64,000 nt of DNA from the NCBI GenBank assembly GCA_963828195.1, contig CAWHDT010000005.1:608001-672000 (forward strand), in the 5' to 3' direction. Position 1 is the stretch's first letter; each line of letters opens with the position of its first letter. The notes below the pieces were generated by a model that was not told where the DNA came from, did no database searches, and saw only the letters and a list, made by a program, of their open reading frames with translations. Below are positions 13,017-62,626 of this stretch, in pieces. This DNA is from Candidatus Bathyarchaeota archaeon. Its GTDB lineage: Archaea > Thermoproteota > Bathyarchaeia > Bathyarchaeales > Bathycorpusculaceae. Position numbers and translations under genes: made by a program.

Positions 13017-14549
13017 TTGCATTTTGGAAGAGAAAAAAAGATAGTTTTTGCGGTGGTTATGGCGACGGCGTTATGTCTGGTACTTTCGAGTTTTTCGCCG
13101 ATGTCGCATTCTCAAACTAACAGTTTTACTTTACCTTGTACCATCAACACAACGGGCAACGCGTGGGACGGCGACATAGCGTTTGATCTATCCAGTGAAG
13201 CGGTTGATGCTTTGGTAATTATGAACACTAATGGCACCCTGCTGGACGTGCGTCAATCCTCAAGCAGCTACGGACCAACCTATGAAATTGCGCCCGGCAT
13301 TTTATTATTCGAGGGTGAACCTCAAATAAGTGACCCTGACTCTGCCTGGCCAGTTTGGGCTACCCACTTATTGAATTTAACTTCAGGTACAACCGAAGAC
13401 TTTCTCAATGCCCTTAGTGAACATGACATTGAGTACGATCCGGTCAACAACACATTTCTCACTCTGCAAGACTACGTCAGGCAAATCGGAAATAACATGT
13501 TTCTTATGGACAAGATTGTGCAGGTTGACTCAAACGGAAACACGCTCTGGAGCTGGGACACCTACAACTACATTCCCCTCAGCGAAGCTTCCCCGTATAA
13601 CCAGACAGATACGTTGCCTAACGGACAAAACGTGATAGATTTCACCCATGCAAACAGCATTGACTGGGACTACAATAATGGCATTATTTACCTGAATTTG
13701 CGAAACACAAACACCTTCTACGCAATCAACCAGACAACTGGCGACATAATTTGGGCGTGCGGCGAATTCGGCAACTTCACCCTTCTCGGAGCCAACGGCC
13801 AACCGCTGCCTGACGTTAATGGTTTGCCGCCCAGCCTATGGTACAACAGCCACGACGTCAAACAAGTAGCCCCAGACGTATTCACCATGTTTGATAACGA
13901 TTTTGACAATAATTCTAATCCTGACGATTGCCACAGCCAAATGTTAGAAGTGACGCTGAATACAACAAGCATGACAGCTTACGTGAACTGGAGTTGGGAA
14001 GCGCCCACGGCATACTGGAACACCTATGGAGGCGCAACTCTGGTTCTTCCAAACGGAGATTTCATAGCTGATTTTGGGGACCCCTCGCATCAATTGACGC
14101 AAAACTCAGTAAACGGGACAGGTCAATCTTGGGACTTCAATAACACAGGGGCAGTGTTTGTGGAGGTGAATCCCGCTGGGCAGGTTGTGAGAACCTGGAC
14201 GTTCCCAGTCGGGTGGTATGTTTACAGAATTGAAGATGTAACTGGCCCTGTTTCGGCTATTTTCCCAACTTCAACTCCTGTCGCCACTAATCCTACGCCT
14301 GTTGCCACTGCTACGCCCACTCCTGGTGCTTCTCCCTCTCCATCGTCTGTTGCTGCAACTCCAACTCCTGTCGGCACGCCAGCCCCATCTGTTCTACCAA
14401 GTTCAACTCCCCCAATCGCCATTAGTTCTCAAACAATCGTTGCCAGCGTCGCGCTTACAGTGGTTATTGTAGTTGTTGTTGTGTTAGCAGTGGTGTTCTA
14501 TGTGAGAATTAGAAACCGCAAAATTAATGGCGAAACCCAGAAAAATTAA
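13017..14549 (+). CDS. Secreted arylsulfotransferase (ASST)-like beta-propeller with P/T linker and C-terminal membrane anchor, copy 1
   Basis: Signal peptide; EHDI, DFTHANSID, HD..MFDN motifs; PT-rich linker; TM plus basic tail. Confidence 0.78.
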   Translation: MHFGREKKIVFAVVMATALCLVLSSFSPMSHSQTNSFTLPCTINTTGNAWDGDIAFDLSSEAVDALVIMNTNGTLLDVRQSSSSYGPTYEIAPGILLFEGEPQISDPDSAWPVWATHLLNLTSGTTEDFLNALSEHDIEYDPVNNTFLTLQDYVRQIGNNMFLMDKIVQVDSNGNTLWSWDTYNYIPLSEASPYNQTDTLPNGQNVIDFTHANSIDWDYNNGIIYLNLRNTNTFYAINQTTGDIIWACGEFGNFTLLGANGQPLPDVNGLPPSLWYNSHDVKQVAPDVFTMFDNDFDNNSNPDDCHSQMLEVTLNTTSMTAYVNWSWEAPTAYWNTYGGATLVLPNGDFIADFGDPSHQLTQNSVNGTGQSWDFNNTGAVFVEVNPAGQVVRTWTFPVGWYVYRIEDVTGPVSAIFPTSTPVATNPTPVATATPTPGASPSPSSVAATPTPVGTPAPSVLPSSTPPIAISSQTIVASVALTVVIVVVVVLAVVFYVRIRNRKINGETQKN

Positions 14550-14640
14550 TTACAATTCTGCTCCCGCGATTCGGACTTTACGTTTTCTCAATTTTACCAA
14601 AAGGCTTTATACGTTCCCAAAGAACTCCAAACGGGGAAAC

Positions 14641-16215
14641 TTGGTTCATTTCAAAAGAAGCAAAAAAACAGTTTATCCAGTAGTGTTAATGACTGCATTA
14701 TGTCTCGCACTATGCAGTTTTCTTCCATTAACCAATTCTCAAACTAGCAGCAGCTTCACTTTACCCTGCACTGTCAACACAACAGGAAACGCGTGGAACG
14801 GCGATATAGCGTTTGATTTAGAATTAAATTCTGGTTTTATGGGTGTAGATGGAACAGGAAATTATTTGGTGGTTATGAACACCAATGGCACTTTGTTAGG
14901 TGTGCGTGAATCTGCCAATAGCTACGGACCTGCCTATAATATTGCTCCTGATACCTTGATGTTTGAGGGTGAGCCTCAAATAGATGACCCGAGCTCTGCT
15001 TGGCCTACTTGGAACACGAATTTCTGGAATTTAACGTCAAACACAATCGAAACGTTTCCTAACGTTCTTAGCGAACATGACATTCAATATGACCCGGTTA
15101 ACAATACTTTTCTTACTCTACAGGACTATGTTAGGCAGGTTGGAAACGACTCGGTTCTTATGGATCGGATTGTAGAAGTTGATCCAAACGGTAATGTTCT
15201 TTGGAGTTGGGATACCTATAATTACATCCCGCTAAGCGAAGTTTCTCCATTCAACGAGACAGATACATTGCCAAACGGGCAAACCGCCATGGATTTAACT
15301 CATGCAAATACTCTTGACTGGGACTACAATAATAGCATTATTTACCTGAATTTGCGGAACACAAACACCTTCTACGCAATCAACCAGACAACTGGCGACA
15401 TAATTTGGGCGTGCGGCGAATTCGGCAACTTCACCCTTCTCGGAGCCAACGGCCAACCGCTGCCTGACGTTAATGGTTTGCCGCCCAGCCTATGGTACCA
15501 CTGCCACGACGTCAAACAAGTAGCCCCAGACGTCTTTCTTATCTTCGACAACGATTACGAAAATAATACTAATCCTGATAATTGCCACAGCCAAATCCTA
15601 GAAGTAACGCTAAACACAACAAGCATGACAGCCTACGTGAACTGGAGTTGGGAAGCCCCCACACAGTACTGGAACGACTATGCAGGCGGCGCTTTGATTC
15701 TTCCCAATGGAGATTTAATCGGCGACTTTGGGGATCCAACGCATCAGTTGCAGCAAAATTCAGTAAACGGGGCAGGTCAATCTTGGAATTTCAACGATAC
15801 CGGTGCCGTGTTTGTAGAGGTGAATCCCGCTGGGCAGGTTGTGAGAACCTGGACGTTCCCAGTCGGGTGGTATGTCTACAGAATTGAAGATATAACTGAT
15901 CCAATTTCTGTTGATGTAGCAACGCCAACTCCGACTTCTGTGGCAGCAGTTCCTGTTGCCTCTGCCACTCCAAATCCTGCAGCTACTGCTACGCCAGTCG
16001 CTACTTCAACTCCCGCCCCTGTTGTTACTCCAACCCCTATCGTCACGTCGGAGCCGCCAACTTCAACGCCGTTAAGCGCCATTAATTCTCAAACAATCGT
16101 TATCAGCGTTGCGCTTGCAATGTCTGTTATAGTGGTTGTTGTGTTGGCCGCGGTGTTTTATGTGAATATAAAGGTTGGCAACCGCAAAATCGATGGGAAA
16201 ATCCAGAACAATTAA
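14641..16215 (+). CDS. Secreted ASST-like protein, tandem paralog copy 2 (likely TTG start 14641)
   Basis: Colinear with copy 1; DLTHANTLD, HCHD..IFDN. Confidence 0.78.
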   Translation: MVHFKRSKKTVYPVVLMTALCLALCSFLPLTNSQTSSSFTLPCTVNTTGNAWNGDIAFDLELNSGFMGVDGTGNYLVVMNTNGTLLGVRESANSYGPAYNIAPDTLMFEGEPQIDDPSSAWPTWNTNFWNLTSNTIETFPNVLSEHDIQYDPVNNTFLTLQDYVRQVGNDSVLMDRIVEVDPNGNVLWSWDTYNYIPLSEVSPFNETDTLPNGQTAMDLTHANTLDWDYNNSIIYLNLRNTNTFYAINQTTGDIIWACGEFGNFTLLGANGQPLPDVNGLPPSLWYHCHDVKQVAPDVFLIFDNDYENNTNPDNCHSQILEVTLNTTSMTAYVNWSWEAPTQYWNDYAGGALILPNGDLIGDFGDPTHQLQQNSVNGAGQSWNFNDTGAVFVEVNPAGQVVRTWTFPVGWYVYRIEDITDPISVDVATPTPTSVAAVPVASATPNPAATATPVATSTPAPVVTPTPIVTSEPPTSTPLSAINSQTIVISVALAMSVIVVVVLAAVFYVNIKVGNRKIDGKIQNN

Positions 16216-16741: not shown

Positions 16742-16840
16742 TTTGACGACGACAATTACCCTGGGAGTTTTAAGCTCTCCAAACTTTTTACATTAAGATT
16801 TTGCATGTTTGAGTTTTTTGTTTTTTGCCTGAATTTTTTA

Positions 16841-16967
16841 GTTGCGACTTTGCCGTGGCGTAAGTTGCGACTTTCGCGGGTGGCTGTTTGTGGTTTGGGC
16901 TGGTTTTTTGGTTTAGGGTTGGTTTCTGCTTTTTGGTTGCGACTTTGGGATGGGCGGATTGCGACTT
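16841..16967. repeat. Cluster of four TTGCGACTT direct repeats; the third extends into a motif repeated at 23427..23448
   Basis: Copies start at 16842, 16865, 16937, 16959. Confidence 0.7.
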
Positions 16968-17181
16968 ACAGTGTTGATTTAATGTAGAAATTATTGTCTG
17001 ATATGGGTGGGTTTTACCTCATCCAGCCGTTTTTTGGAAGTTTTCGACCAATTTTTTGGGTGCCAACTAACTTGCCTATTGATTGGAGACCTTTTATCTT
17101 CATCATATTTCACCGCTCAGTATTATTATCTCTGTTTTAAGAAATTAAGTTTCTTCAATTGGCTTTATTAGTAAGAATATT

Positions 17182-18753
17182 TTACATGTAAAATCTGTAT
17201 TGATGTTCGATTTTTTCTTTTGGAGGAATAATTCCGAGTATTTTGCCGACTTTTTCAGCGAAACGTATCGTTATAGGCATGTATGAGCTATAACGTGCAG
17301 TATTCCAATCTAGTCTGGTTAAGGCCAATATTTCATTTGCAAGCTCTCCTGAAGGAGTATCGCCGTTTTGTTCTGTGAATTCTAATGGCTTAGGTACGCG
17401 TGGACCCTGATAACTTCTCACATATGGTACATATCCACCAGTAAATAACATGTTTGAGCCATCCGGCATTTTCAGATATGTTCCTCTTAGTACAGGTTTG
17501 TCGCCATTTCGATAGAAGAATATATCATGCCCTTGAGAAATGGTAATGTAATCTCGCTTTGGAACGTCATGTGAAGCAATGTCAAAGCCTTGAGTTTCAT
17601 CTCTAGCGTATCTTGAACTTTTGTGTATAACTATACGATTGGGAAACTGTTCATCATGATGCTTGCGATAAAGGTTAATTGCGCGGTGAAGTAACTCTGC
17701 AGCACCCTCCTTCGTTAGTCTTGGTTGCCCTTTCTTCTTAGTGTCCCACTGAAAATTGTCGCCTCTAACTACTAATCCTTCGCTAGTATCAGTGAAAACT
17801 TGTGCTAAACTTGCAAACATATTTTTTTCATGTGTTGTTTGATCATAATAAAAAGCTATACCAATAAAGCAGCTACCTGGACTTAATCTACCAAGTTTCC
17901 AAGGAAAGTGATTAGTCTTATAATACAAAGCAACACCCAAATTCCATGCAATCGTTGAAGGATCTTCTTTTCGATGTTTAGCCGACTCAATGGTTGCAAT
18001 TTGCATTACAGTGTTTAACTCTTCTAAAGTGCTTTGCTTGAAAATTTGAACGGGAATTCCTGATTTTATTGCTTCAGCTTTAAGCATTTTTCTGAAATCT
18101 GCTTTTATCACCATATTAATGAAATTTTGAGTATCTTCATCAAGTGGTGCAAGAAGCATTAAATGCGTTTCAATATTCTTTCTTAACTCCTCTGCTTTTG
18201 CTTTCTCTTGCTTAGTTAATCCGCAATGCCTAGATTCTCTACAGTTTTCTTCAATTTCCTTGATTTTATGGCAGATAATTACATCGGGTCTAACTACCCT
18301 GTCACAAATATTACTTATCTTCTTACCATAGAGTTCAGCGGCTTTCCGAATTCTAAGGTTTGGGTTGTCATTTTCAATAACATTTGATACTTCACCACTT
18401 AATATTTTGTCGTTATAATCGGGAGACAGGATGATTCGTGCTCTAAACGCTTTCTCGAATCCTGGAAATACTAGAGTTGTAAAAGGATTTTCTCCAAAAC
18501 TTCGTATCGTTTTTTGATTAAAATATTCAAAGAAATGAGTAAGATCATCTATGCCTTTAGCATTACTTACAAGCCCAACTCTTATCGTCTGAATATCGTT
18601 TGTGGCATCTACTGGTCCATGAATTGTTAACCCTCTCTTTGGGTCAATATCCATTGCCCCATTTCTAAAATAAAGTGGAACCTCTGTCAGATACTTTGCT
18701 TGCAATGTCTCGAGTTTTTGAAAAATTAGTGATTCTTTAATCTGTACAGTCAT
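17182..18753 (-). CDS. Short prokaryotic Argonaute (MID-PIWI, no N/PAZ, apparently non-catalytic)
   Basis: AWNLGVALYYK...PW, CFIGIAFY, IVIHKSS, PVLRGT, PKPLE, EILALTRLDWN, PITIRFA, C-terminal YRFYM. Confidence 0.93.
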   Translation of the reverse strand: MTVQIKESLIFQKLETLQAKYLTEVPLYFRNGAMDIDPKRGLTIHGPVDATNDIQTIRVGLVSNAKGIDDLTHFFEYFNQKTIRSFGENPFTTLVFPGFEKAFRARIILSPDYNDKILSGEVSNVIENDNPNLRIRKAAELYGKKISNICDRVVRPDVIICHKIKEIEENCRESRHCGLTKQEKAKAEELRKNIETHLMLLAPLDEDTQNFINMVIKADFRKMLKAEAIKSGIPVQIFKQSTLEELNTVMQIATIESAKHRKEDPSTIAWNLGVALYYKTNHFPWKLGRLSPGSCFIGIAFYYDQTTHEKNMFASLAQVFTDTSEGLVVRGDNFQWDTKKKGQPRLTKEGAAELLHRAINLYRKHHDEQFPNRIVIHKSSRYARDETQGFDIASHDVPKRDYITISQGHDIFFYRNGDKPVLRGTYLKMPDGSNMLFTGGYVPYVRSYQGPRVPKPLEFTEQNGDTPSGELANEILALTRLDWNTARYSSYMPITIRFAEKVGKILGIIPPKEKIEHQYRFYM

Positions 18754-20161
18754 CAATCTCTTCTTCCTCGACGTCTTCCTCTAACTCTGTTTCTTTTTCA
18801 GCAATTGTTTCGGCTTCATCTTGAGCTGGCTCTTCTTCAGACCAGAGTCTTTCTCGATAGTCTTCTTCAACGCCTCGGTTTACTTGGGCAAATAAGGGTG
18901 TACTCAAAATGGTGGTTGGTATTTCTGCCCCAACTTGCAATTCTATTCTTTCCTTACCCCCTGAAAGCTTGAATGCCCAAAACCGTACGTCATCCAAAAC
19001 AGTGTGGTTTTGCTCGATATTCATCCATCGAGTAGAGTACGAAGACATTGCAAAAGGGGTTACTGGCTGCTGGATACCGTTAGTAGTAAAATGCCAACCT
19101 GGAATAATTTTCAAAAAGAGATTTTTCCCAACTTTAGTAAACGTTGCTTTGCATGATCGATGTGCATAGTATTTGCCAGTCTTTGATTTAGTGACTATTA
19201 TACGTGTAAATTCTCGCTTTCCTATTTTCCACTTTGCAAATCTATTTTCATCGCCGTCTTTTTCTAATGGAAAAAATGTTTTCTTATTTGTCCAATCATA
19301 GACCATTCCAATTTTCTTCATGTGCTCAGTCATTGCCCGATTTAGAAGTTCTATGATTATGGATGATTCTTCTGAATCAACTAATCCTTTGATAGCAACT
19401 CTTTCGGTTGAGGTCCCCTCCAAAATGGCAGATAGTTTCTGTTGAGGATTATTAAGCGGCGTAAACGAGTATACTTGTTGTGTTTGCTCTCTTAGAACAA
19501 AAAGGGGTAAAGAGGTTTCACCTAGCATTGCGAAAACATCAGGGCGTCTTTTGATTTTAGAATATGCAACATTCAGGTACTCAGGCATCTCAATAACTTG
19601 AAACAGATTGGAGGCTATGTTTTCTTCTTGAATATCAGGAAGAACAGAATCAACTGGTTGAGAAGGAATGTTAGATGTCTGGACGGAATCAAGCACTGAT
19701 CTGATAGTTTTTCCAGTAAGTCTTGCCAAGAGCTTCTTTATTTCTTTGGGAAATGCTTGGTCATTACGGAAGTCTAGCCATTTGAGGATTTGTATTGAGG
19801 CAGGAATATCGCAATTTCGCCTAAGTATGGGTATTATTCTAGCCTTTATTCCTGCGGGGTCCTGGTATACTGGTATACTCCGTTCAAGAGTAGTCCAATC
19901 AGATTTTAGCCAGTCAGGTGAGATAATAATTCCTATAAAACGAGACTTTTGTAACGCAGCCTCTATTTTAAGAAGTAAGTTTTCTCCGGGTTCTATATCC
20001 CATGGAGCATAGAAACATTTCAAGAGTCTGCCTTGATATGGTTCTTGTTCAATACGTTTAACAAGTAATTCAGCGAATTCAATATCAGCCGTGTTGTAAG
20101 AAATGAAGATGTCATACTGAATATCAGTGTCGTCTTGCATCCAAGGGTCTTCCTTGGTCAT
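18737..20161 (-). CDS. TIR-APAZ effector protein (start 20161 or 20203)
   Basis: TIR: YDIFISY, DIEPGE, IISPDWLKSDWTTLE, IIPIL, WLDFR; APAZ-like C-terminus (SNLF, LLNRA, H.SCKATF, LKIIPGWHFTTNG, EQNHTVLDDVRFW); overlaps pAgo start. Confidence 0.88.
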   Translation of the reverse strand: MTKEDPWMQDDTDIQYDIFISYNTADIEFAELLVKRIEQEPYQGRLLKCFYAPWDIEPGENLLLKIEAALQKSRFIGIIISPDWLKSDWTTLERSIPVYQDPAGIKARIIPILRRNCDIPASIQILKWLDFRNDQAFPKEIKKLLARLTGKTIRSVLDSVQTSNIPSQPVDSVLPDIQEENIASNLFQVIEMPEYLNVAYSKIKRRPDVFAMLGETSLPLFVLREQTQQVYSFTPLNNPQQKLSAILEGTSTERVAIKGLVDSEESSIIIELLNRAMTEHMKKIGMVYDWTNKKTFFPLEKDGDENRFAKWKIGKREFTRIIVTKSKTGKYYAHRSCKATFTKVGKNLFLKIIPGWHFTTNGIQQPVTPFAMSSYSTRWMNIEQNHTVLDDVRFWAFKLSGGKERIELQVGAEIPTTILSTPLFAQVNRGVEEDYRERLWSEEEPAQDEAETIAEKETELEEDVEEEEIDDCTD

Positions 20162-20364
20162 AGTCTGTTGATATATTATATAGCTTTTAGGTTTAATCAT
20201 CACTTAATAGAGCGCGACCTCAACTCTAAAAATCACATTCCGGATATTGGCGCGCGCTCAAGTGCATCATAGAAGAATCTATTAAAACACTTTAAACAAA
20301 TAGGAATATATGAATGCTTAATAACAGTCCATTTGACAAGTAACACAGACTGAGGGAAGATGGT

Positions 20365-21267
20365 ATGGTTACAAGCGGCAAAGCTAACAAGTGTTATATC
20401 GCTGCATCGGCAAATGACGACCTTCTTTTAAAAATTAAGAAGTATCTTGAAGACCGTGAAATTGAGGTAACCGACGCTTATAGTTTTGAGCTGTCAGAAT
20501 CAAGTTTGATTGTTCAGAATGAAATGAAAATAAAGAAAAGCACATTCTTTGTGGCAATTATATCCTTAGTTGAACCTAACCCTAACGTTTTCTATGAGTT
20601 GGGCATCGCGAGGGCAATGTGTAAGCCGACTTTCCTGATTATTCGTGACAAAGGTAATTTGCCAACGTCGATTGCGGAAATGAACTATGTAAGAGCGTCT
20701 AGTGCTAACTTAGAAACAATATTTTATAGCTTAGACAGGTTCCTCAATGTTGTTGTCGGCAAATCTAAACAAAAGAAAGTGTGTACCTCAGAATATGATA
20801 AGCCCTTGGAAGTCAAAGGACCTATTTACATAGAAGAAACTGAGCAACAGTTTGTTTTGCCAAAAAATGAAGAACAACTTGTTAGAGATATAGAGGCTCT
20901 GTTTGATAGACAAGGTATCGTTTACTTTGTAGAGAAACTAGATAACAGTAGGGTTGATATGTCCCTCTGGGTTGATTCCCTTGAAAAATCGATTGGAAAC
21001 CCAATTCTAGTTGAATTAAAGGCTGGTCGCCTAACAGAAGCAATCATTTGTAATGCTGAACAAAAATTAATCGAATCCATAAAGACTGTTCATGGCCGAG
21101 GCGGTTTGTTAATTTATTCAGATTCGAGCGGCAGGCATTTTAAGCGTTCCAAGTGGAAATCTCCACTAATAATACGTCTAGATTTCAAAGAACTGCTAAA
21201 CAATAATGCCCCTATTGATTTAGTCATTTTGTCAGAACGGAACCAAATTGTACATTCGGGAGAATGA
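20365..21267 (+). CDS. NDT/TIR-like nucleotide-processing domain fused to PD-(D/E)XK restriction-endonuclease-like domain
   Basis: NPNVFYELGIARAMCKP motif; RVDMSLW...PILVELK...GGLLIY. Confidence 0.7.
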   Translation: MVTSGKANKCYIAASANDDLLLKIKKYLEDREIEVTDAYSFELSESSLIVQNEMKIKKSTFFVAIISLVEPNPNVFYELGIARAMCKPTFLIIRDKGNLPTSIAEMNYVRASSANLETIFYSLDRFLNVVVGKSKQKKVCTSEYDKPLEVKGPIYIEETEQQFVLPKNEEQLVRDIEALFDRQGIVYFVEKLDNSRVDMSLWVDSLEKSIGNPILVELKAGRLTEAIICNAEQKLIESIKTVHGRGGLLIYSDSSGRHFKRSKWKSPLIIRLDFKELLNNNAPIDLVILSERNQIVHSGE

Positions 21268-21816
21268 TTCCCTTGACCCAATATTCACAAAGTAAGATCA
21301 GAAGTTATTTTGACATTTCAGACGCAGCACCCAATGACGCTGGAGGAAGGACATTAAAGGGTAGAACACTTGAAGACCTGATTTACTATATTTTTGAGAG
21401 GGTTCCAGGTATTCCTATCATCGAAAGAAACCTACAGAACGCTTTCCAAACTGAAGAAATTGATCTTGCTTTCTGGAACGAAAAAACGGTTAAGGGTCTA
21501 ATATTTCCTGCCTAATCTTATAATAGTTGAATGTAAAAACTGGTCAAGTTCAGTCGATACTGACGCAGTTTCCTATTTTAAGAACAAAATTGAAGAAAGA
21601 GGTTTAGATTTTGGAGTGCTTGTAGCAGCGAACGGAATCACAGGCGATAGAGAAGTTCTCTCAAGAGCTAATTTCATAATTGCCACAGCATTGGCTCACG
21701 GAATCCGCATAATCGTTTTAACACGAGGTGAAATTGAAACCCTCAGAACTACAGCAGATCTAGTATTATTGATAAAGAAGAAATTATGCAAATTAATTCT
21801 TACTCAATCAGTATAA
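21264..21816 (+). pseudogene. Mrr-like restriction endonuclease split by +1 frameshift near 21500
   Basis: KGRTLEDLI...EEIDLAFWN in one frame; FLPNLIIVECKNWS...GVLVAANGITG in the next frame; ATGA overlap with upstream gene. Confidence 0.8.
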
Positions 21817-21942
21817 AAGTACTCCGAAACATTACTGAAAAAATGGGGAAGCTGAAGAGCGCGCGTCAACATAAGTCTCATGAAATTGACTTCATACAGG
21901 AAAACAAAATCCTTAAAATTTCCTGAAACTCCCTTGGGGCAT

Positions 21943-22968
21943 CTAAGATGTTAAATTTTCATTAAATTTCTTCAAGTAATCGACTGTTATCTGTTCAACG
22001 ATCTTTGCATAGTCAATTTTAAGGTTGCTTAACCGAAGAAAACGAATTCCAGAGGCGTTTGCTTTTCGTATAGCTGCCGGTGTCGCTTTTCTAAAAACTA
22101 TCATACCATATGTATTCTTGGCTAAATAGCTAGTAATTTTGTCTTTTTCACGACTCTTTGCCCATTCAATTTTTTTAAGGAAAGAGTTTACCGTGTAACC
22201 TGTTACTGGAAACCGAGTGTAAACATCTATAGCAAGGTATTTTTTTTCTATTGTGTTTTCTCTGAAATGGTAAAAAATATCAAACGTCATACCGCCAGTG
22301 ATCTTTAACGTTTCTCGTTTTCTTGGTCTTATCGCGTCGTCATAGCTGAGCATGACGTCAATAGGGTACAAGTTCATTATTAGTTCGTGGACTATTTTTA
22401 GGACTGAAAACTCGGCTAAATCTTTAACAATAATTGATTGCTCATCCAGCCCCATTTTCCAAGCATGAGATTTAGGAACGTAAAAGTCGGTATTTCCTAA
22501 GTGCACTTTCTCAATAAATCCCAGTTTCTCTAATCGCCTCGTTGTGTATTCAACAACATTTCCTGGTGCGGGGACCAAGCGTTTCAGATCATACAATGAG
22601 AAGTAGAAAACATCTTTGTTTAAACTCAAAAATTTTTCAAGGAGGCGCTTTTGAAACTGGGTCAAAAGACTGCCCATTTTGTTTTTTACTTCTTTCTCAG
22701 GTTTGTTTTTTAAAAATAACAGCTTGCCTTGTCTACCAAAAATAGTTGGCTTTTGTTCGTTTGTTGCTTTAAAAGCTTCAATGCACCTGCAATCGCCAGA
22801 GGTTAGGAACTTAATGCTTTTTACTATTGTATAGTTGCCGCAACTACCTTCAAGCAAACTCTTAAGCCTAGCAGTTGTACACATACCTTCTTTCTGCACA
22901 AGGTTTACAGCGGCCTCTCTTCTTCCCTTACAAGCAAGTTCACAAGGACAACTAATAGGATTTCCCAT
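21943..22968 (-). CDS. Winged-helix plus C-terminal REase-fold-like protein
   Basis: wHTH-like SLYDLKR...VEYTTRRLEKLGFIEKV; TFDIFY...LAIDV...GMIVF..ATPAAIRKANASGI resembles Mrr-cat tail. Confidence 0.5.
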   Translation of the reverse strand: MGNPISCPCELACKGRREAAVNLVQKEGMCTTARLKSLLEGSCGNYTIVKSIKFLTSGDCRCIEAFKATNEQKPTIFGRQGKLLFLKNKPEKEVKNKMGSLLTQFQKRLLEKFLSLNKDVFYFSLYDLKRLVPAPGNVVEYTTRRLEKLGFIEKVHLGNTDFYVPKSHAWKMGLDEQSIIVKDLAEFSVLKIVHELIMNLYPIDVMLSYDDAIRPRKRETLKITGGMTFDIFYHFRENTIEKKYLAIDVYTRFPVTGYTVNSFLKKIEWAKSREKDKITSYLAKNTYGMIVFRKATPAAIRKANASGIRFLRLSNLKIDYAKIVEQITVDYLKKFNENLTS

Positions 22969-23037
22969 TAATCTTAACCGTTAATTTGTTCAACAGTCGA
23001 GTTATTAATAACCATTCCCTAGAAATTAAGTGATTGT

Positions 23038-23152
23038 AATCTAGTAATAAGAAAGGAAATATAGTAAAATGAAATTATTGAAAATTATTTGATATTCTAT
23101 TGAATTACTAGTTTCCTCATTACTAATCAGATTACTAGTAAATTACTAGATT
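23038..23152. promoter_or_regulatory. Putative operator array upstream of the wHTH gene
   Basis: ATTACTA(G/A) at 23104, 23119, 23131, 23142; AATCTAGTAAT (23038..23048) is the perfect inverse of ATTACTAGATT (23142..23152). Confidence 0.5.
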
Positions 23153-23468
23153 TAAGGTTATGTCGGGAATTTATGTCAACAACTAATTGAACGAGTTTAG
23201 CTATTGTATACTTAGTCAAGATTGCAAGGATCCACTTGCAGCCTCTACCACATGAACCCAACATGGAGTTGGAGAACCGCGCGCTGGCAAGCTGCAAGGC
23301 AATCTTGATTTTTGTAGTCTTTGACTCGTACTTTTAGAAAAAAAAGACAGGCTGGAGATATTGCGATATTTCCATAATGAAATTCGATTTTCCAGCTTAA
23401 CTTTTTGTGTTTTGGTTTGTTTTTTTGTTGCGACTTTTCGGATGGGCGCTGGGGAAGCTGCGGCGTGG

Positions 23469-24314
23469 CTATTTTTTCAGTTTTGCTTGGACTTTTTCGA
23501 CGATTTGCATGAAGGCTTTTGCCGCCGCCGAATTCTTCTGCGCCACGATGAACGGTTCGCCCCTGTCGGAGTCCACGCCGATTTTCGGGTCAATCGGGAT
23601 GCTGCCGAGGAAAGCCACGTCCATCTCTTTAGCCATTTTTTCTCCTCCGCCTGACTCGAAAATCTCTGTTTTCGTTCCGCAGTGAGGGCAGACAAAGCCG
23701 CTCATGTTTTCGACAACGCCGATGATCGGCATGTTTAGGCGTTCGGCGAAGGTGATGGCTTTCTTGACCACGCTGCTTGAGAGTCCAGTAGGCATGGTGA
23801 CGATGACGACGCCGTCTATGTCAGGCAGCAGCTGCGCGATGCTGAGCGGCTCATCGCCCGTGCCAGGCGGCAAATCAATGAATAGAAAATCCAGTTCACC
23901 CCAAACAATGTCTACGAGAAACTGCTTTATCGCCTTCATCTTCAGCGGTCCACGCCAAATCGTCGGCGCTTCCTCAGGCAAAAAGAAGTCAATCGACATA
24001 ACCCTCATCCCCAGCGGACCGTCAACTGGAAAAGCCCCGGGAGGACCATACTTAACCTGCTGCCCCTCCAACCCCAGAAGCTTAGGCACGCTTGGCCCAT
24101 GAATGTCGGCGTCTAAAACCCCAACCTTGAACCCCTTCGCAGCAAAAGCCGTTGCAAGGTTAACGGTTACGGTGCTTTTTCCAACCCCGCCTTTGCCGCT
24201 GATAACCGCGATTTTATGTTTGATCTTGCTCATTCGCTCTTTCAGTTTATTTTGCTCTTCTGACTGCTGTTTCTTGTATTCTTCAAGCTGAGCCATATTT
24301 CTCTCTAAAGCCAT
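23469..24314 (-). CDS. Mrp/NBP35 Fe-S cluster carrier ATPase
   Basis: SGKGGVGKST, DADIHGPS, IWRGP, DLPPGTGDE, ENMSGFVCPHC. Confidence 0.95.
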   Translation of the reverse strand: MALERNMAQLEEYKKQQSEEQNKLKERMSKIKHKIAVISGKGGVGKSTVTVNLATAFAAKGFKVGVLDADIHGPSVPKLLGLEGQQVKYGPPGAFPVDGPLGMRVMSIDFFLPEEAPTIWRGPLKMKAIKQFLVDIVWGELDFLFIDLPPGTGDEPLSIAQLLPDIDGVVIVTMPTGLSSSVVKKAITFAERLNMPIIGVVENMSGFVCPHCGTKTEIFESGGGEKMAKEMDVAFLGSIPIDPKIGVDSDRGEPFIVAQKNSAAAKAFMQIVEKVQAKLKK

Positions 24315-52737: not shown

Positions 52738-54009
52738 TTAGCTTTGCTGCTGTTTGAATCTGAGCATAGCTGCGATGCCGCCAAAAGCGTTCTTGAGCAT
52801 CTGACCTTCTTCGGTCTCCGTCGAAATTACCTCGACATCCGTGTTTGACATCTCCGCTAGCTCAGCCAAGTCGTCTATGACATCTTTTTTTTCGAGAATA
52901 GTCATGGATGGTGCACTGCATTTTGGGCAAGGTTTCCCGGTTAAGCTCTGCTCGAAACCCGCGACTTCTTGGCTTTTAATGGTGTGCTGCTCTTCATAGC
53001 CGCAGGCGCTGCATTTAACGGTCACGCGAACCAGATCCAGACTCTCAGACATGATAAGTAAACGAATTGCTCCCGCCTGCAAGAGCCGCCTCACCTCGGC
53101 TTCACCGTAAGTTATCATGCCCGTGTCATGGCCAACTTCGTAGAGGAATTTCTGCATGATATCTTTCTCTTCAATGTATCGGACTTTCTTCATTATCTCA
53201 GGCGCTTTATCCATCACTTCCTTAACGCCCTGCTCCTCCACATAAGCCGTGTCAACGACATCGAGAATTTTATCTTTCAACTGATAATTCAAGTAACCGC
53301 CTTTCTCAAAATCATATTTTGTGGGTCCAGGACCGCCAAGAATGATCCCTTTTAGGGTGTCAATGGGAAGGAAAGTTTCGTTCGCATGTGCGCCAACACG
53401 GGTAAAATACTCGTTTAGCTGCATGTCCCGCAGCCGTTCATATCGTCTAGATGATTGCCCACCTGCCTTAGTTTTACCCGTAACCCCGGAGTGCATTTGC
53501 CTGACGATTTCCATGTGTTTACCTTGCAAGGTGGCGATGGTAGCGTTATTGGCATCCACCAGCAAGATTCCGTAGGTTTCTTTCTCCCGCAACATCTCTT
53601 GCAGATGCTCAGTATGAAAACGAGAGTCACAGCGATAAAGAAAAATCCTGATAGGCTCAGGCGGAACAATCACGTAGGATTCCATGCGTTCAGTGCCTGG
53701 AGCGCCTCCTTCCTGCAGAAGAGCACCTGTAAAAATCACTATGCCTTTTTCGCCTGGGTCTTTGAAGAGCTTGAGTTTCTGCTGGGCTTTAGTGATGGCG
53801 TCGAGTACGTTTTTGCGGGTTACGTTGGATTTGATGTTGCTGGCTGTTCCATATTCGTTTCGCAGAAGGTTCAAAGCGTCGCTGATTTGTTTGCCCGGCG
53901 GAACATAGACGGTGATGAGTTCGGTGTGGCTGCCCTCTTTACTGGCTAGGGCGTTAAGTGTTTTTCTTAGCCGAAATAGCTCAAGAGACGATTTTTTCTC
54001 TGTACTCAA
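52738..54009 (-). CDS. prf1: Peptide chain release factor aRF1
   Basis: TASNIKS, YRCDSRF, AGGQSSRRYERLR, FGGIAAMLRF. Confidence 0.97.
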   Translation of the reverse strand: MSTEKKSSLELFRLRKTLNALASKEGSHTELITVYVPPGKQISDALNLLRNEYGTASNIKSNVTRKNVLDAITKAQQKLKLFKDPGEKGIVIFTGALLQEGGAPGTERMESYVIVPPEPIRIFLYRCDSRFHTEHLQEMLREKETYGILLVDANNATIATLQGKHMEIVRQMHSGVTGKTKAGGQSSRRYERLRDMQLNEYFTRVGAHANETFLPIDTLKGIILGGPGPTKYDFEKGGYLNYQLKDKILDVVDTAYVEEQGVKEVMDKAPEIMKKVRYIEEKDIMQKFLYEVGHDTGMITYGEAEVRRLLQAGAIRLLIMSESLDLVRVTVKCSACGYEEQHTIKSQEVAGFEQSLTGKPCPKCSAPSMTILEKKDVIDDLAELAEMSNTDVEVISTETEEGQMLKNAFGGIAAMLRFKQQQS

Positions 54010-54091
54010 ATAACTTCACTAATTACTAAGTCAATCGGATAACTAACGTTAAAAGGAATCAAATAAAAGTTCCGACATAAAAAGCGGGAGA

Positions 54092-55102
54092 TTAGGCTTT
54101 TGGCTTAACTGGCGGTGCCGCTGGCTCAGACATCGGTGCCCCAATGGCTTCTCTGAGATAAGCCTTGAATGGACCCAGCTTCCCACCATAGTTACCAGAC
54201 GAAATCTTAACTATGCCGGGCACGCCGAGGGCTGCGGTTACGCCTTCTTTCATGCCTTTTTTGACTGCGTCCAAGGTTAAGCCGTTCATAACAATTTCGT
54301 AAACGCATTTGACGCCTTCTGGCACAACAGAGTCAGACACAAGTGTGCGCAGCGTTGGGCAGTACGGGTGGTTAGTTGAGGCTTTAAGTTTGTATTTAAG
54401 CGAGCCAGCCTTGCTTCCTGAACGGCAGACTCCTCCTGGAAACTGCATAATCACATCAGGAGCATTTGCGCGGATTGCATCTGCCGCCGCTTCAGCCGAT
54501 TTCAATCCTGATGGCTGATCTTCAGCAAAAATCATAAAGTTGCCGCCTGCAACCGCTTCCATAGCGCCAAAACCGTTTTCAACGATAAATTCGCCTTCCA
54601 TCACGGGAAGCTTCCAGCATTTTCTTCCTCCAACCATGGCTTTTTTCTGGTACCCATCGCCGAAGTATCGTAAGCTGTTGCCAACGTCCAATGTTCGTTT
54701 GCCGACTAACCCGTTGAAGGCTGCGGTTGTTGGACAAGTCAAAGTGCATTGACCAATACGCTGCATAAGTTGGTGCTTGAGTTCAAATCGGTCACGATTA
54801 TAAATTTGAATTAGCACACCTGGCCGCTTGTCAGGGGTCTGGTCTGCTGGAACAGTCCGCTCGATTGCTGCTTCCGCAGTTGCCTCAATTACGCTCGTGG
54901 CAAAACCCGTGGTTAAACTCGCGGCGATTAATGCCCACTTCTCGTTTTGAGCGGTAATTAAAACTCTTCCGACCCAAAGAGGAAACATTTCTGCAAAGGT
55001 ATCTTGAACCTTCACAACGTTTCCCATGGGCGATTTTACAAGGAACATTTTTTCTTTATCGTCATAGCTTTGGATTTCAACCGCGTTAGTGTTTGATGAC
55101 AT
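54092..55102 (-). CDS. ftr: Formylmethanofuran:tetrahydromethanopterin formyltransferase
   Basis: DTFAEMF, GFATSVI, TPD.RPG, RIGQC.LTCPT, FGDG, FPGG..RSGSK, ASTN, GNYGGKLG. Confidence 0.95.
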   Translation of the reverse strand: MSSNTNAVEIQSYDDKEKMFLVKSPMGNVVKVQDTFAEMFPLWVGRVLITAQNEKWALIAASLTTGFATSVIEATAEAAIERTVPADQTPDKRPGVLIQIYNRDRFELKHQLMQRIGQCTLTCPTTAAFNGLVGKRTLDVGNSLRYFGDGYQKKAMVGGRKCWKLPVMEGEFIVENGFGAMEAVAGGNFMIFAEDQPSGLKSAEAAADAIRANAPDVIMQFPGGVCRSGSKAGSLKYKLKASTNHPYCPTLRTLVSDSVVPEGVKCVYEIVMNGLTLDAVKKGMKEGVTAALGVPGIVKISSGNYGGKLGPFKAYLREAIGAPMSEPAAPPVKPKA

Positions 55103-55332
55103 TGAGAGACCTTGCAGTTCAGTTGGGAATTGTATAGTTTCAATACCTTTATTATTGATATTTAAACTATTAATCCCTATCAACTTTATCTGCGTCCCTC
55201 TTAGTCGGATTATTCATTAATTAACTTTACTGAATGAATCTTAACCCTTGAATTTACTCGGTAATAACCCTAACCGCTTTAACCCACTTTTTTCCATAAG
55301 CATGGTTGACGATAGCACATACCCTTAAATTA

Positions 55333-55833
55333 TTATGAAATTTTGAAACCCCAAACATAATTAATAATATATGGATTGAAAGAAACTTGTTGCTCGGCAG
55401 TAATAATTTGAGTACTGTTACTTCCATAATCTTGAGTTATGTATATAGAGTTTGTAGAATTAAGAATATAGTAAGTGTCCATTAAATCCCAACCATCAGC
55501 AACATATACACGAACAGGAAAGGTTTGATTGTTTGTTATTATCAAACTTAGAACATTTGGTATTATCTGAATTAAAGCACTTCCATTTACAGGTGTAAGA
55601 GCATAATAAGGTGTACCATTATAGCAATTACAATATAAGAGTGTTAAGTTCTGAACAGTGAAAGGTAAGGGATAAAGTGTTACTCCATAAACTTCCTTTG
55701 CAGTTTGTGGAGTAATTGGGGTGTTTGCTGTGATTCTGATTATTGAATTATGATTTAAAGTAACTGAAATACCTGCTATTGTACTTGCAACTATAAGAAT
55801 TATCAAGATTGATATAACTATTTTTTTATTCAA
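55333..55833 (-). CDS. Hypothetical secreted or membrane-anchored protein (element cargo)
   Basis: MNKK + hydrophobic helix; N/T/Y rich. Confidence 0.6.
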   Translation of the reverse strand: MNKKIVISILIILIVASTIAGISVTLNHNSIIRITANTPITPQTAKEVYGVTLYPLPFTVQNLTLLYCNCYNGTPYYALTPVNGSALIQIIPNVLSLIITNNQTFPVRVYVADGWDLMDTYYILNSTNSIYITQDYGSNSTQIITAEQQVSFNPYIINYVWGFKIS

Positions 55834-55983
55834 TTCTATCTCTAATATTCCAATTTACGCTTTTCAGATTTAAAACTTATCATCAATGAAAAATAGCAGT
55901 GCTACCGAGAACAAAAATACTCTCTAATAGCGGTTAGGATAACGCTAAATATGCAGCCTAACAAACTATGTTTTGGTGAGAAT

Positions 55984-56205
55984 ATGAACAAGATAGTATT
56001 AACAGAAAAAAGTAAGGGTTTTGTTATAGATAAACAAGAATGCCTTAATTGTAAAGCTGAATTCTTTTTTAAAATTAAAGACAATGCACTAATCGAGGCG
56101 AAGGGGTATGCAAAAAAGAAATCTGACAAAATTATTAGCTGTAAAATTTGTAATTCGGAATATAGTTTTGAAGTTAAAGGGTTTTCTGGTCGTGTTGGTC
56201 TCTAA
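55984..56205 (+). CDS. Small zinc-finger protein
   Basis: CLNC...CKIC. Confidence 0.55.
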   Translation: MNKIVLTEKSKGFVIDKQECLNCKAEFFFKIKDNALIEAKGYAKKKSDKIISCKICNSEYSFEVKGFSGRVGL

Positions 56206-57677
56206 CTCCTTGAAAATAATCCTTTTTTATTTTGGTTAAGACGATTAGTGATAACAAAATTTCTATTGATAATAGGATGAATAGTGTTAGACTGCTTACC
56301 GAAATTACTCCAAGTTTCACCAGTGTTCATGTCATGAATAACTATTCTTCCACCTGTCGCTGGTTTAATAGGAAATTGCTGTTCATCCCAGAAGTTTAGC
56401 AACAAAAGAGAATCGACTAAATCGTCGTAATGCGGATTGCCTTGTTTTTTATAAGACTTCATTTCTTGAATTAAATCGTCATATTCTGATGATATCTCTA
56501 ACCCTTGACTCTCTATTACATGGCTAAGTTGTCCTTGCATGACTTCTTTGTAATAGCGTGAATTGACAGAGAAAACTTTGCTCTTACCGTAAGCTTCCGA
56601 TATGAGGTCAGACCACATAATGGGCAGACTATCAACCTTAACAAGCTGTACTTTATAGGACTTTAGAAACTCTGCTATTTCTGCAACTGCACCGTTAATC
56701 TGTTCAAATCCCCATGTCTTACGGAAGAGAACTTTAAGCTTATACTTACCGTTTTTCTCCCCTATTGTTAAGGCTAATTTGTCTCGGTCAGTGTGTCCAG
56801 TTCCACCACCGTCTATTCCAGCCCATCTAATACCTCCTTCGCTTAGTACCTGTTCTCTAATAGCTTTGTTAATTTGCTCTGTGTCCCATAGTAACTTAAT
56901 GCTGCTCTCGGATATTTCCCCGAGTACATCCCTTTTCCACTCATCTTCCGTCATTATCGTTTTCTTATTGCTTAGTTCTTCTTGACTATGCCAATCACAG
57001 TCTATTTCGCTCCACTTGAAAAGAGTAAAATTGTATTTCTTTGGGTTTTTGAGTATCTCATTAAACTTAGAATATCGAGAACTCGGAGTGCCTAAGACTA
57101 CCAGCTTAATCTTTTTACCGCTAAGATTTCCGTAAGCTGTAGATAGTGTTTCAGAAGGCATTAATTCAGCCTCATCTAAAAAGAGAATGCTTGCACTTGC
57201 TCCCCGTATGCCTTTCTCGGAAGAGGATAATAGCTGTACCTTGCTACCGTTCTTTAAAGAGTAGCCGTCTTTAGGAATAATGTTAGCTACCCCTTCCCAA
57301 CTTACATACTGTCTAAGCTCTGGGTTACTGCTAAAGATGTCTGTTATGTGTTGATAAACGTAGTTCTCTTTAGCAGAGACTAAGCACACTTGAATCTTGT
57401 TTTTGAGTGTTAAGTAAATGGCTGCTACTGCACAGCAAAGGCTCTTTCCAGTCTGTCTTCCAGCACTGATAAGAACATTCGTTAGCTCTGGGTTTTCTAA
57501 TCCCTGTAAGACCTCTACTTGTTTAGCGGTAGGAATTAGCTCTGTAATCTTAGTAAAAAATTCTGTTATGCTGAGACTGAGAAGGCTATTAACTTCTTTA
57601 GTTATTGCTAAGTTACCTTCTTTAGCCTTCAATCGGTCTCGATATTTTTTCTGCTTCTCAGCGTTAGTCATAGGCAT
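56202..57677 (-). CDS. Phage-type terminase large subunit
   Basis: PTAKQ, SAGRQTGKS Walker A, IRG...LFLDEAE Walker B, LGTP, WAGIDGG...D and DDLVDSL RNase H-like acidic residues. Confidence 0.9.
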   Translation of the reverse strand: MPMTNAEKQKKYRDRLKAKEGNLAITKEVNSLLSLSITEFFTKITELIPTAKQVEVLQGLENPELTNVLISAGRQTGKSLCCAVAAIYLTLKNKIQVCLVSAKENYVYQHITDIFSSNPELRQYVSWEGVANIIPKDGYSLKNGSKVQLLSSSEKGIRGASASILFLDEAELMPSETLSTAYGNLSGKKIKLVVLGTPSSRYSKFNEILKNPKKYNFTLFKWSEIDCDWHSQEELSNKKTIMTEDEWKRDVLGEISESSIKLLWDTEQINKAIREQVLSEGGIRWAGIDGGGTGHTDRDKLALTIGEKNGKYKLKVLFRKTWGFEQINGAVAEIAEFLKSYKVQLVKVDSLPIMWSDLISEAYGKSKVFSVNSRYYKEVMQGQLSHVIESQGLEISSEYDDLIQEMKSYKKQGNPHYDDLVDSLLLLNFWDEQQFPIKPATGGRIVIHDMNTGETWSNFGKQSNTIHPIINRNFVITNRLNQNKKGLFSRS

Positions 57678-57693
57678 TAAAGAATAACCTTCT

Positions 57694-57837
57694 TTATTTC
57701 TTGGATTCTGGGTTTGGTTGTGGTTGATTTAAAAGATTCCCATCTGCATAGAGTTTCTTGTAGAACTCAAGGTTCTTTTTACTTAATCCAATTTGGGTTA
57801 GAATCTCTTCCTTGACTTCTTCGCTGCTTTTGGTCAT
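57694..57837 (-). CDS. 47-aa hypothetical protein (not in ORF track)
   Basis: MTKSSEEVKEEILTQIGLSKKNLEFYKKLYADGNLLNQPQPNPESKK; ATGA overlap with upstream gene. Confidence 0.5.
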   Translation of the reverse strand: MTKSSEEVKEEILTQIGLSKKNLEFYKKLYADGNLLNQPQPNPESKK

Positions 57838-58508: not shown

Positions 58509-58514
58509 TTTGAT

Positions 58515-58715
58515 TTATACCCCTTTTTTATTCTCACTATCATGAAATGAGAAATTGGAATTGTAAACACTCGCTCCCTGAGTAACTACTGGAAACTTTG
58601 CTAATCTCCTTAGTTCTCTGGGAGACTTTGTTTGGTTTGGACAATGCTTTCTTATAGAATAACCTCGCCTTTCCGTATCTTGTCTATACTGAAAACCTCT
58701 TAATTCCCTGCTCAA
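58515..58715 (-). CDS. Hypothetical small basic protein
   Basis: TTGA overlap with upstream ORF. Confidence 0.4.
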   Translation of the reverse strand: MSRELRGFQYRQDTERRGYSIRKHCPNQTKSPRELRRLAKFPVVTQGASVYNSNFSFHDSENKKGV

Positions 58716-58927
58716 TGTGACCTACACTCCCCAGAATCACAAAGTTTCTGATAATAGTATTTTATATCCAATTTACTATTAGCGATAGGAGAAGGTAGAC
58801 CGAACTTAGTTAAGAGAGCTATATCATTCTCTAACTTTGATATGGTCTTCATTCTTTCCCGTCTAACTGGACACGTAGAAGAACAACTTTTCTCTGGAAA
58901 GGCTCTTTTCTTAATTGAGTGGGTCAT
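58712..58927 (-). CDS. Small Cys-containing protein
   Basis: CSSTC...CDSGEC; ATGA overlap. Confidence 0.55.
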   Translation of the reverse strand: MTHSIKKRAFPEKSCSSTCPVRRERMKTISKLENDIALLTKFGLPSPIANSKLDIKYYYQKLCDSGECRSH

Positions 58928-59330: not shown

Positions 59331-59332
59331 CA

Positions 59333-59816: not shown

Positions 59817-59826
59817 ATTCTTGTAA

Positions 59827-62621: not shown

Positions 62622-62626
62622 GCTTC

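Follow-up and report, generated by a model that had tools for sequence, protein, structure and literature searches.

A TIR-APAZ and short Argonaute gene pair on an acquired island of a Bathyarchaeota genome: a probable defence module of a lineage apart from canonical SPARTA

The locus described here raises the question of whether two overlapping genes of an archaeal genome, one encoding a TIR-APAZ protein and the other a short prokaryotic Argonaute (pAgo), form a defence module of the SPARTA type, and how they relate to the SPARTA systems of bacteria. The genes lie in a stretch of 64,000 nt (hereafter the window, whose positions are used throughout), that is positions 608,001-672,000 of contig CAWHDT010000005.1 of Candidatus Bathyarchaeota archaeon GCA_963828195.1. 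A preliminary description had proposed a SPARTA-like operon, acquired horizontally by an archaeal host. The architecture indeed agrees with this proposal; the pair is not a copy of bacterial SPARTA, however, and belongs to a separate lineage which fits the canonical models poorly. Judged by sequence comparison, it is not a canonical SPARTA by lineage and represents a distinct TIR-APAZ/pAgo family, here named TIRw.

According to the listing of open reading frames (ORFs), the interval 17182-20203 is filled exactly by two ORFs of the minus strand, both intact, as had been stated:

18737-20203, minus strand: TIR-APAZ gene, 488 residues from a GTG at 20203; the probable true start is the ATG at 20140, corresponding to M22, which gives 467 residues
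17182-18756, minus strand: short pAgo gene, MID-PIWI only, 524 residues from a TTG at 18756, or 523 from an ATG at 18753

The start of the pAgo gene overlaps the stop of the TIR-APAZ gene by 20 nt if counted from the TTG and by 17 nt from the ATG at 18753. Alignment of homologues and the sequence upstream, where a TATA-like run at 20171-20182 precedes the ATG at 20140, suggest that M22 is the real start of the TIR-APAZ protein. In 25 of 27 metagenome loci (the L120-L146 set, with at least 48% identity to the partner) the Ago gene follows the TIR-APAZ gene at -29 to +41 nt, and in the remaining two the locus ends at a contig edge; the gene pair is an operon kept across its clade. A wider set of 80 metagenome loci contained no relative of the other island genes or of the flanks of the window, and no conserved third gene. 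Because the Ago gene follows its partner in 25 of the 27 loci without any other shared window neighbour, the pair appears to be selected as a unit.

The product of the first gene, the partner of the Argonaute, is composed of three parts:

19709-20122, minus strand: TIR domain, residues 28-165, from Pfam; the codon of the catalytic Glu, E107, is at 19883-19885
18842-19648, minus strand: APAZ domain, residues 186-454, from PADLOC PNTD models, profile comparison, Foldseek and the predicted Ago interface
18740-18841, minus strand: acidic C-terminal tail, residues 455-488, with 19 D/E and 1 K/R in 34 residues

Pfam TIR_2 matches residues 32-159 at 9.1e-20. The domain carries the motif W103-T-T-L-E107, whose E107 is aligned to the Glu of the AbTIR W-x-x-x-E motif in the PDB alignment and is invariant in 40/40 aligned sequences (the window protein and 39 of the 79 search hits described below); both the conserved Glu and the overlap with the Argonaute start had been proposed, and both hold. 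PADLOC APAZ models ('PNTD1-PNTD2') match residues ~190-485 with values up to 4.1e-37, and ThsB-type TIR models of the same collection match the partner weakly (7.2e-6). The AlphaFold2 model of the partner has a predicted local distance difference test value (pLDDT) of 76.7 and a predicted template modelling score (pTM) of 0.58. The top Foldseek matches of this model are SPARTA TIR-APAZ chains, over both domains and the full length (best E 1.7e-19, 16-19% identity), and the APAZ parts of SPARDA and SPARHA are also matched, with a target-normalised template modelling score (TM) of 0.75-0.82. The C-terminal part of the partner is predicted by these models to fold as APAZ, which agrees with the preliminary assignment.

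Short pAgos are divided by Koopal et al. (2022, PMC9097488) into clades that include S2A, the TIR-APAZ clade, and S2B, with 'various domains'. Acidic tails are reported to be present in S2A and S2B partners and absent from S1 partners, and in apo BabSPARTA the tail plugs the nucleic-acid cleft (Finocchio et al., PMC10899771). The tail of the window partner is of the same kind as this autoinhibitory tail, and its net charge is -5 or lower in 37 of 40 relatives.

The second protein is without N or PAZ part. PADLOC pAgo_I matches its residues 19-524 at 5.1e-129, and ten solved short-pAgo sequences match it with whole-length alignment at 4.5e-57 to 6.5e-26, while searches of Pfam and NCBIfam gave no match for it. 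Its AlphaFold2 model (pLDDT 88.5, pTM 0.89) has only short pAgos as top Foldseek matches (TM 0.79-0.90), SPARDA being the first (E 2.4e-42), followed by Crt-SPARTA and SPARHA. Two sites were located in an alignment of 45 sequences:

17917-18093, minus strand: MID 5'-phosphate pocket, R222, K226, Q237, T268, N272 and K280
17854-17862, minus strand: G299-I300-A301, presumed first catalytic-tetrad position, without Asp

The pocket motif has been defined as Y/H/R-K-Q-T-N-K, the RK type being typical of short pAgos (Ryazansky et al. 2018, PMC6299218). K226, Q237, N272 and K280 are conserved in 45/45 sequences, and the position of R222 is occupied by R in 38 sequences, by H in 6 and by K in 1. At the C-terminus, Y520 and the last residue, M524, are likewise the same in all sequences (45/45); in SPARTA, the C-terminal carboxylate is described as holding a metal that binds the guide 5'-phosphate (PMC10474274). 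At position 301, S is found in 40 sequences, A in 3, and C and T in one each; D does not occur. The reading of GIA in place of GID thus agrees with the letters; that residue 301 is the first tetrad position is presumed, as in the preliminary description. Inactive short pAgos can be aligned to the protein over its entire length, and all short pAgos are reported to be without the DEDX tetrad (Koopal et al. 2022, PMC9097488).

The binding of the two proteins, which had been implied by the preliminary description, was addressed by structure prediction, with the Ago and residues 186-488 of the partner as input. The complex scored 0.85, against 0.01 for the best of three controls; the mark for this score is reached by 58/80 solved complexes and by 2/110 mismatched pairs, counts which hold only roughly here since alignments prepared for this analysis were used. 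The runs share at least 81% of contacts, and the pLDDT of the partner is at least 81. The structure model thus supports an APAZ-Ago heterodimer.

Taking all these features together, the pair is probably a functional two-gene module of the SPARTA type, in which guide-dependent sensing would lead to tail release, oligomerisation, NAD(P)ase (nicotinamide adenine dinucleotide (phosphate) hydrolase) activity of the TIR domain and abortive infection. The heterodimer would load small 5'-phosphorylated guides, probably RNA from the transcriptome, and in the resting state the acidic tail would fill the duplex channel. Pairing of the guide with complementary single-stranded DNA of an invader would expel the tail and alter the Ago surface, so that heterodimers oligomerise; the TIR domains would be joined in this way into composite active sites hydrolysing NAD(P)+, and the infected or plasmid-bearing cell would stop growing or die. 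Every step past heterodimer formation is modelled on SPARTA, SPARDA and SPARHA, and NADase activity and abortive infection are deduced from conserved residues only. Mobility, indicated by the island and the empty sites described below, and a patchy distribution are typical of defence genes.

Several observations weigh against this reading. Activity, guide, target and expression are a matter of inference throughout the lineage, and the host is uncultured, so that defence cannot be examined in the host itself. Modelling is poor (pLDDT <50) for the linker between TIR and APAZ and for residues 106-117, the loop that directly follows the catalytic Glu, and the pTM of 0.58 concerns the whole partner. 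The score of the complex may reflect memory of solved relatives; because like complexes have already been solved, the result is to be taken as likeness, and maybe as memory. A neighbouring gene of the island is fragmented. Finally, an hhalign comparison of the TIR domain of the window clade with five S2A TIRs scores only 19.3 (E 0.024). Because the domain is only remotely like the SPARTA TIR, its product and mode of activation could differ.

The last point leads to the alternative that survives best, namely that the same sensor has another output: the TIR domain would make a cyclic ADP-ribose isomer as a signal for an effector encoded elsewhere, or would act on nucleic acids. In fact, against four archaeal TIR proteins that stand alone, the TIR of the window clade scores far higher (hhalign 131.6, E 9.6e-23) than against the SPARTA TIR, a comparison biased towards the window protein because the stand-alone proteins were picked with it. 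The nearest TIR-only relatives (38-47% identity) occur in proteins of many lengths (110-947 residues), and the weak ThsB-type match cited above points in the same direction. The S2A TIRs behave similarly, scoring 87.6 against the stand-alone TIRs and ~36 against TIRw, and this pattern of scores might also arise if both fused TIRs had diverged rapidly. Against a signalling output, the absence of a conserved third gene from the 80 metagenome loci leaves no linked dedicated receptor or effector, the TIR is covalently joined to an oligomerising scaffold as in SPARTA, and for SPARTA bulk hydrolysis of NAD(P)+ to ADP-ribose and nicotinamide has been measured (PMC9097488). We regard this alternative as unlikely.

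The window belongs to contig 5 of a genome of 2.83 Mb in 9 contigs, estimated to be ~96% complete, and contains an Alba gene and a 107-nt tRNA, which fit the archaeal host that had been proposed. The tRNA match is at 173-279 on the minus strand, and its 107 nt against a model of 71 positions are consistent with an intron. The gene pair lies on the following segment:

16742-23468, unstranded: low-GC inserted island between the alba stop (16741) and the mrp stop (23469), from GC content and empty sites

These 6,727 nt have a GC content of 0.374, against 0.439 in the rest of the window; values of 0.34-0.39 are found in the stretch of the gene pair and of 0.42-0.54 in the flanks. The comparison within the genus comprised 17 genomes with an mrp orthologue (68-85% identity). 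In 16 of the 17 loci, alba is convergent to mrp with 63-602 nt between the 3' ends, and the 17th locus is cut 47 nt past mrp. Because 16/17 same-genus loci have an empty alba-mrp site, the island is considered a lineage-specific insertion, and its absence from these congeners indicates that the insertion is recent. Among 300 other genomes of the same class, full-length TIR-APAZ relatives were found in 3 only, with 28-34% identity; the 14 same-genus genomes within this sample contained no full-length TIR-APAZ relative, and two of them gave APAZ-only matches. Empty sites, GC content (0.37 vs 0.44) and the rarity of relatives in the class all indicate horizontal acquisition of the module, which is well supported and agrees with the earlier proposal.

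Soil metagenome contigs from several studies carry near-identical copies of the module, the listed pieces showing 0 differences, and one contig (X4 record 28, 18678-18831) bridges the overlap of the two genes. These copies bear on a second alternative, according to which the pair has no immune function and represents a remnant, either decaying or domesticated, such as silent cargo of the island or a regulator of host nucleic acids. The fragmented neighbour, because of which the island does not appear to be under uniform selection, is in favour of this view, as is the fact that no RNA dataset is listed for the stretch. Both ORFs are intact, however, all key residues are conserved, the insertion is recent and the metagenomic copies are near-identical; a remnant is accordingly very improbable, and we retain the reading of the pair as a defence module.

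It remains to place this module among the known short pAgo systems. Anchors for clade S2A were obtained from 401 sampled genomes of the phylum Bacteroidota, of which 24 had a match; one anchor, L101, has an Ago that is practically the same as CrtAgo, with 1,174 bits to 8ifk_B over 507 residues. The check with PADLOC was favourable in part: the pAgo and APAZ models cited above match well, whereas the TIR-APAZ models match the window partner at 1e-13 and 7.8e-14 only, against 1e-143 and 2.1e-129 for the L101 partner, the Crenotalea SPARTA protein. Six further TIRw members (three bacterial, two archaeal and one of the window clade) gave 1e-6 to 1e-21 with the same models, and their best PADLOC matches are APAZ-only, to REase- or SIR2-APAZ models. 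When PDB was searched with a profile built from 40 partners of the window clade, the SPARHA HNH-APAZ protein 9om4_A was found at 2.6e-31, AbTIR at 1.5e-11, DREN-APAZ at ~1e-10 and the Crt SPARTA partner at ~1e-6, the latter through the APAZ part alone; the Map and Bab SPARTA partners were not found at 1e-3. Moreover, the window Ago scores 197 and 194 bits to the SPARDA and SPARHA Agos, against 161-172 to SPARTA Agos.

In hhalign comparisons the TIR of the window clade scores 326.7 with bacterial and 325.5 with archaeal TIRw. The APAZ domain scores 386 with archaeal TIRw, 340 with bacterial TIRw, 269 with Schlafen-APAZ and 230 with an archaeal group without Pfam family; lower values were obtained for DUF4365 (172), HNH (one sequence, 124), S2A (101), SMEK (77) and S1B (24).

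Phylogenetic trees were built after the removal of 12 duplicate or truncated loci, the initial tree having 122 rows and the later ones 72. With S1-type rows as root, a careful LG+G4 search on the 72 Agos gave a tree in which the S2A anchors form a clade with support 100/100, all other S2 rows are together with 90/89, and the window clade, with 100/100, is inside the latter. A careful tree of Ago and APAZ (74 rows, 867 columns) gives 100/100 for S2A, 84/94 for the rest and 100/100 for the window clade, which is joined by four archaeal rows, two Schlafen and two TIRw, with 92/93. The backbone of S2 is not resolved in a quick LG+C20 tree of the 72 Agos. A quick LG+G4 tree was discarded as the basis for the test of S2A with the window clade: the constrained tree was better by 19.5 log-likelihood units (lnL), which indicates that the quick search is unreliable, and weight is therefore put on the careful LG+G4 trees only. 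In approximately unbiased (AU) tests, whose groups were named after the trees had been seen, a union of S2A and the window clade was not rejected, either with Ago alone (delta lnL 3.29, p 0.406) or with Ago and APAZ (delta lnL 2.69, p 0.458); nor was a union of all TIR-associated Agos (41 rows vs 31; delta lnL 34.6, p-AU 0.12, on a quick tree). The trees thus firmly support the window clade as a separate, deep lineage outside the canonical SPARTA clade, and leave a sister relation to S2A admissible; one or two TIR-APAZ joining events are both compatible with them. The best trees place the window clade with the non-S2A systems, and the similarity scores point the same way.

The third alternative, an ordinary S2A SPARTA brought to the archaeon by recent transfer from bacteria, has in its favour the identical architecture, the SPARTA chains at the top of the Foldseek matches of the partner and the AU tests of S2A with the window clade, but it is contradicted by the PADLOC values, the profile search, the Ago bit scores and the S2A clade that excludes the window clade, as well as by the relatives described below, since 3/3 named close ones are archaeal and full-length identity does not exceed 38% across 185,579 species, so that we hold it to be the least credible of the alternatives.

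A more ambitious reading would join several of these elements: TIRw would have arisen independently and not as a diverged SPARTA, when a TIR NADase of a generic kind was joined to an APAZ/pAgo scaffold of the S2B type, would be activated by filaments, and would be the main Argonaute-NADase module of archaea, invisible to annotation. Under this independent union, target-induced filament assembly, as in SPARDA and SPARHA, would align the TIR domains into an NADase filament and not into the closed tetramer of SPARTA. As a whole this proposal is speculative and rather doubtful.

How widespread is the family? In a search of 5.8 billion clusters, 79 proteins at E ≤1e-3 were found among 6,368 candidates, 78 of them at ≤1.1e-64, and the three named close relatives come from Hodarchaeota, Bathyarchaeota and Bathyarchaeia. 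For the Ago, 68 listed matches have 41-80% identity, after which the values drop to 37% or less. Scoring of 1.84 billion representatives at 50% identity gave 6,727 hits at 1e-3, 1,014 at 1e-10 and 76 at 1e-30, in which full-length matches (26-36% identity) are mixed with the many TIR-only matches mentioned above. The scan of 185,579 species genomes yielded 581 relatives, and a TIRw-type partner is present in 37 of the best 80 loci, 5 archaeal and 32 bacterial. The bacterial hosts among the best 80 are Verrucomicrobiota, Planctomycetota, Acidobacteriota, Cyanobacteriota, Myxococcota, Chloroflexota and Bacteroidota; the archaeal hosts of the family are Bathyarchaeia, Thermoplasmatota and Nitrososphaerota, with the Asgard Hodarchaeota represented by one named relative. 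The lineage is widely represented among uncultured archaea and in several phyla of bacteria. Viral contigs gave 60 pattern matches, none of which encodes a relative.

The other partners among the best 80 loci are Schlafen/AlbA_2-APAZ (5/5 tested by Pfam), DUF4365-APAZ (3/3 tested), HNH-APAZ (L062), SMEK-APAZ (L097 and L098) and some without Pfam family; a subset was tested by Pfam and the remainder was assigned by BLAST clustering. A large, mostly archaeal group of short pAgos has the Schlafen/AlbA_2-APAZ partner (L006, L016, L025, L043, L047 and 13 further loci) and occurs in Nitrososphaerota, Thermoplasmatota, Methanoperedens, Micrarchaeota, Thorarchaeota and in genomes of the same genus and class as the host; in L039 and L051 this partner and the Ago are fused in one ORF of 967-992 residues. 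Further archaeal pAgo systems (L002, L004, L014 from a same-genus genome, and L024) have APAZ partners with an N-terminal part of ~180 residues without Pfam family (2/2 tested), and in L024, from Hadarchaeota, the APAZ partner is apparently fused to the Ago in an 850-residue frame. One bacterial TIRw partner (L003:3004-4950, 649 residues stop to stop) has an N-terminal helix-turn-helix before the TIR domain, matching PADLOC HTH_VI and capH.

In the literature, SPARTA has been reported in Acidobacteria, Bacteroidetes and Proteobacteria in a work that used 283 RefSeq short pAgos (Koopal et al. 2022, PMC9097488). TIR-APAZ proteins are treated as one APAZ group, IIa (Ryazansky et al. 2018, PMC6299218), and TIR is assigned to S2A, with nucleases and other effectors in S2B (SPARHA paper, PMC12738770); bacterial TIRw members, for example those of Acidobacteriota, may already be within published 'S2A' sets. 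A 2026 survey of subsurface metagenome-assembled genomes describes proteins with TIR2 and AlbA domains that form clusters with archaeal pAgo hits, and the accessible part of its text mentions neither SPARTA nor TIR-APAZ; TIR-APAZ is not mentioned either in the accessible part of an Asgard defence paper. Our literature search found nothing joining SPARTA, Bathyarchaeota and Argonaute, and for TIR-APAZ with archaea and Asgard it returned only structural papers on other systems.

The remainder of the island and its borders contain these elements:

16842-16967, plus strand: four copies of TTGCGACTT at the left border, from repeat counts against shuffles
23428-23436, plus strand: fifth copy of TTGCGACTT at the right border, from the same counts
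20365-21267, plus strand: cargo outside the module, 300-residue protein with a TIR-like/nucleoside-deoxyribosyltransferase-like N-terminus and possibly an Mrr-type nuclease C-terminus
21943-22968, minus strand: cargo outside the module, 341-residue protein of no recognised family, with an Atlas lead only

The 9-mer TTGCGACTT has five copies in the window, all on the same strand and all at the two borders of the island, with 0.72 expected and 0/100 shuffles reaching five. It is missing from 15 of the 16 empty sites examined, and the single copy found in the other lies beyond alba. Soil-metagenome contigs from other studies span the right border without differences (X3 record 24, 23203-23773; X2 record 14, 23355-23589). 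For the left border, the listed metagenome records contain no bridge of at least 31 nt, many bins being without cover in individual runs. In several runs, contigs agree with the window as far as 16792 or exactly as far as 16967 (the latter in X1 and X3) and diverge beyond that point, which suggests that other strains carry different content at the site. No integrase was recognised on the island.

The gene of the 300-residue protein is divergent from the TIR-APAZ gene and matches Pfam Nuc_deoxyrib_tr at 2e-4, below the cut-off, and phrog_3634 at 1.1e-8; its Atlas neighbours (0.97), a lead only, contain Nuc_deoxyrib_tr, TIR_2 or Mrr_cat in a minority of members. No relative of it was found in the 80 metagenome loci. 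It may be a candidate second, single-gene defence system, unlinked to the pAgo pair in other loci. Two short ORFs of the plus strand follow it, 21264-21515 (83 residues, overlapping the stop of the 300-residue gene by 4 nt) and 21616-21816 (66 residues); they have no family match and resemble pieces of one broken gene. The 341-residue protein has no match in Pfam, PHROG or NCBIfam. Its first Atlas hit (0.94) is a Bathyarchaeota cluster with HTH_24 in 14% of members, again a lead only, and weaker neighbours carry Mrr_cat/NERD. Elsewhere in the window, 13017-14549 and 14527-16215 (plus strand) encode tandem paralogues of 510 and 562 residues, surface-protein-like, with an N-terminus resembling a signal sequence, numerous N-x-T/S sites, a linker rich in Thr and Pro and a hydrophobic anchor at the C-terminus. 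A second long low-GC stretch (0.36-0.40) at 54000-64000 may be another foreign segment.

If the TIRw pair is active, the range of Argonaute-triggered NAD depletion comes to include archaea, among them lineages close to the stem of the eukaryotes. At least two families with the TIR-APAZ design exist, separated by a deep split, and only one of them has been the subject of study, through three closely related bacterial systems. TIRw largely escapes current annotation, as Pfam and NCBIfam do not call its Ago and the PADLOC TIR-APAZ models fit weakly, and archaeal defence surveys consequently are likely to under-count it. Whether TIRw is activated as a tetramer or as a filament, in comparison with SPARTA, SPARDA and SPARHA, bears on whether effector or scaffold dictates assembly. 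Moreover, the family offers new scaffolds for SPARTA-style nucleic-acid detection, and the comparison with empty sites provides a dated example of the arrival of a defence island in a Bathyarchaeia genome.

Among the known systems, SiAgo of Sulfolobus islandicus resembles the window pair as an archaeal short pAgo that is reported to trigger abortive infection (PMC11788926); unlike it, SiAgo has three components, including Aga1 and the membrane effector Aga2, and no TIR, a distinction drawn from its description. The archaeal Schlafen/AlbA_2-APAZ systems (L006, L016, L025, L043, L047) and those without Pfam family (L002, L004) share archaeal hosts, including the same genus and class, and their APAZ is the next closest after TIRw, but their effector is SLFN_AlbA_2 (5/5 tested) or of no Pfam family (2/2).

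SPARDA (S2B, DREN/DUF4365-APAZ; PDB 9qbp, 9qbl, 9jsb) has the closest solved Ago both by sequence (4.5e-57) and by fold, whereas its effector is a PD-(D/E)XK nuclease activated by filament assembly (bioRxiv 10.1101/2025.04.08.647717). SPARHA (S2B, HNH-APAZ; Acidithiobacillus caldus, PDB 9om4) provides the solved APAZ that lies nearest by profile, its Ago (194 bits) ranks among the nearest solved ones, and it too has an acidic tail; its effector is an HNH nuclease forming filaments on activation (PMC12738770), whereas that of the window is a TIR. SPARTA itself (S2A; Crenotalea, Maribacter and Bacillales; PDB 8ifk, 8fex, 8qlo) differs in that the window partner fits its TIR-APAZ models weakly, the window Ago is outside the S2A anchor clade, the window host is archaeal, and the two TIRs each match stand-alone TIRs far better than each other. 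It shares with the window pair the two-gene operon in the same gene order, a partner made of a TIR with the catalytic Glu, APAZ and an acidic C-terminal tail, a MID-PIWI-only Ago with the 5'-phosphate pocket, and the folds of both proteins.

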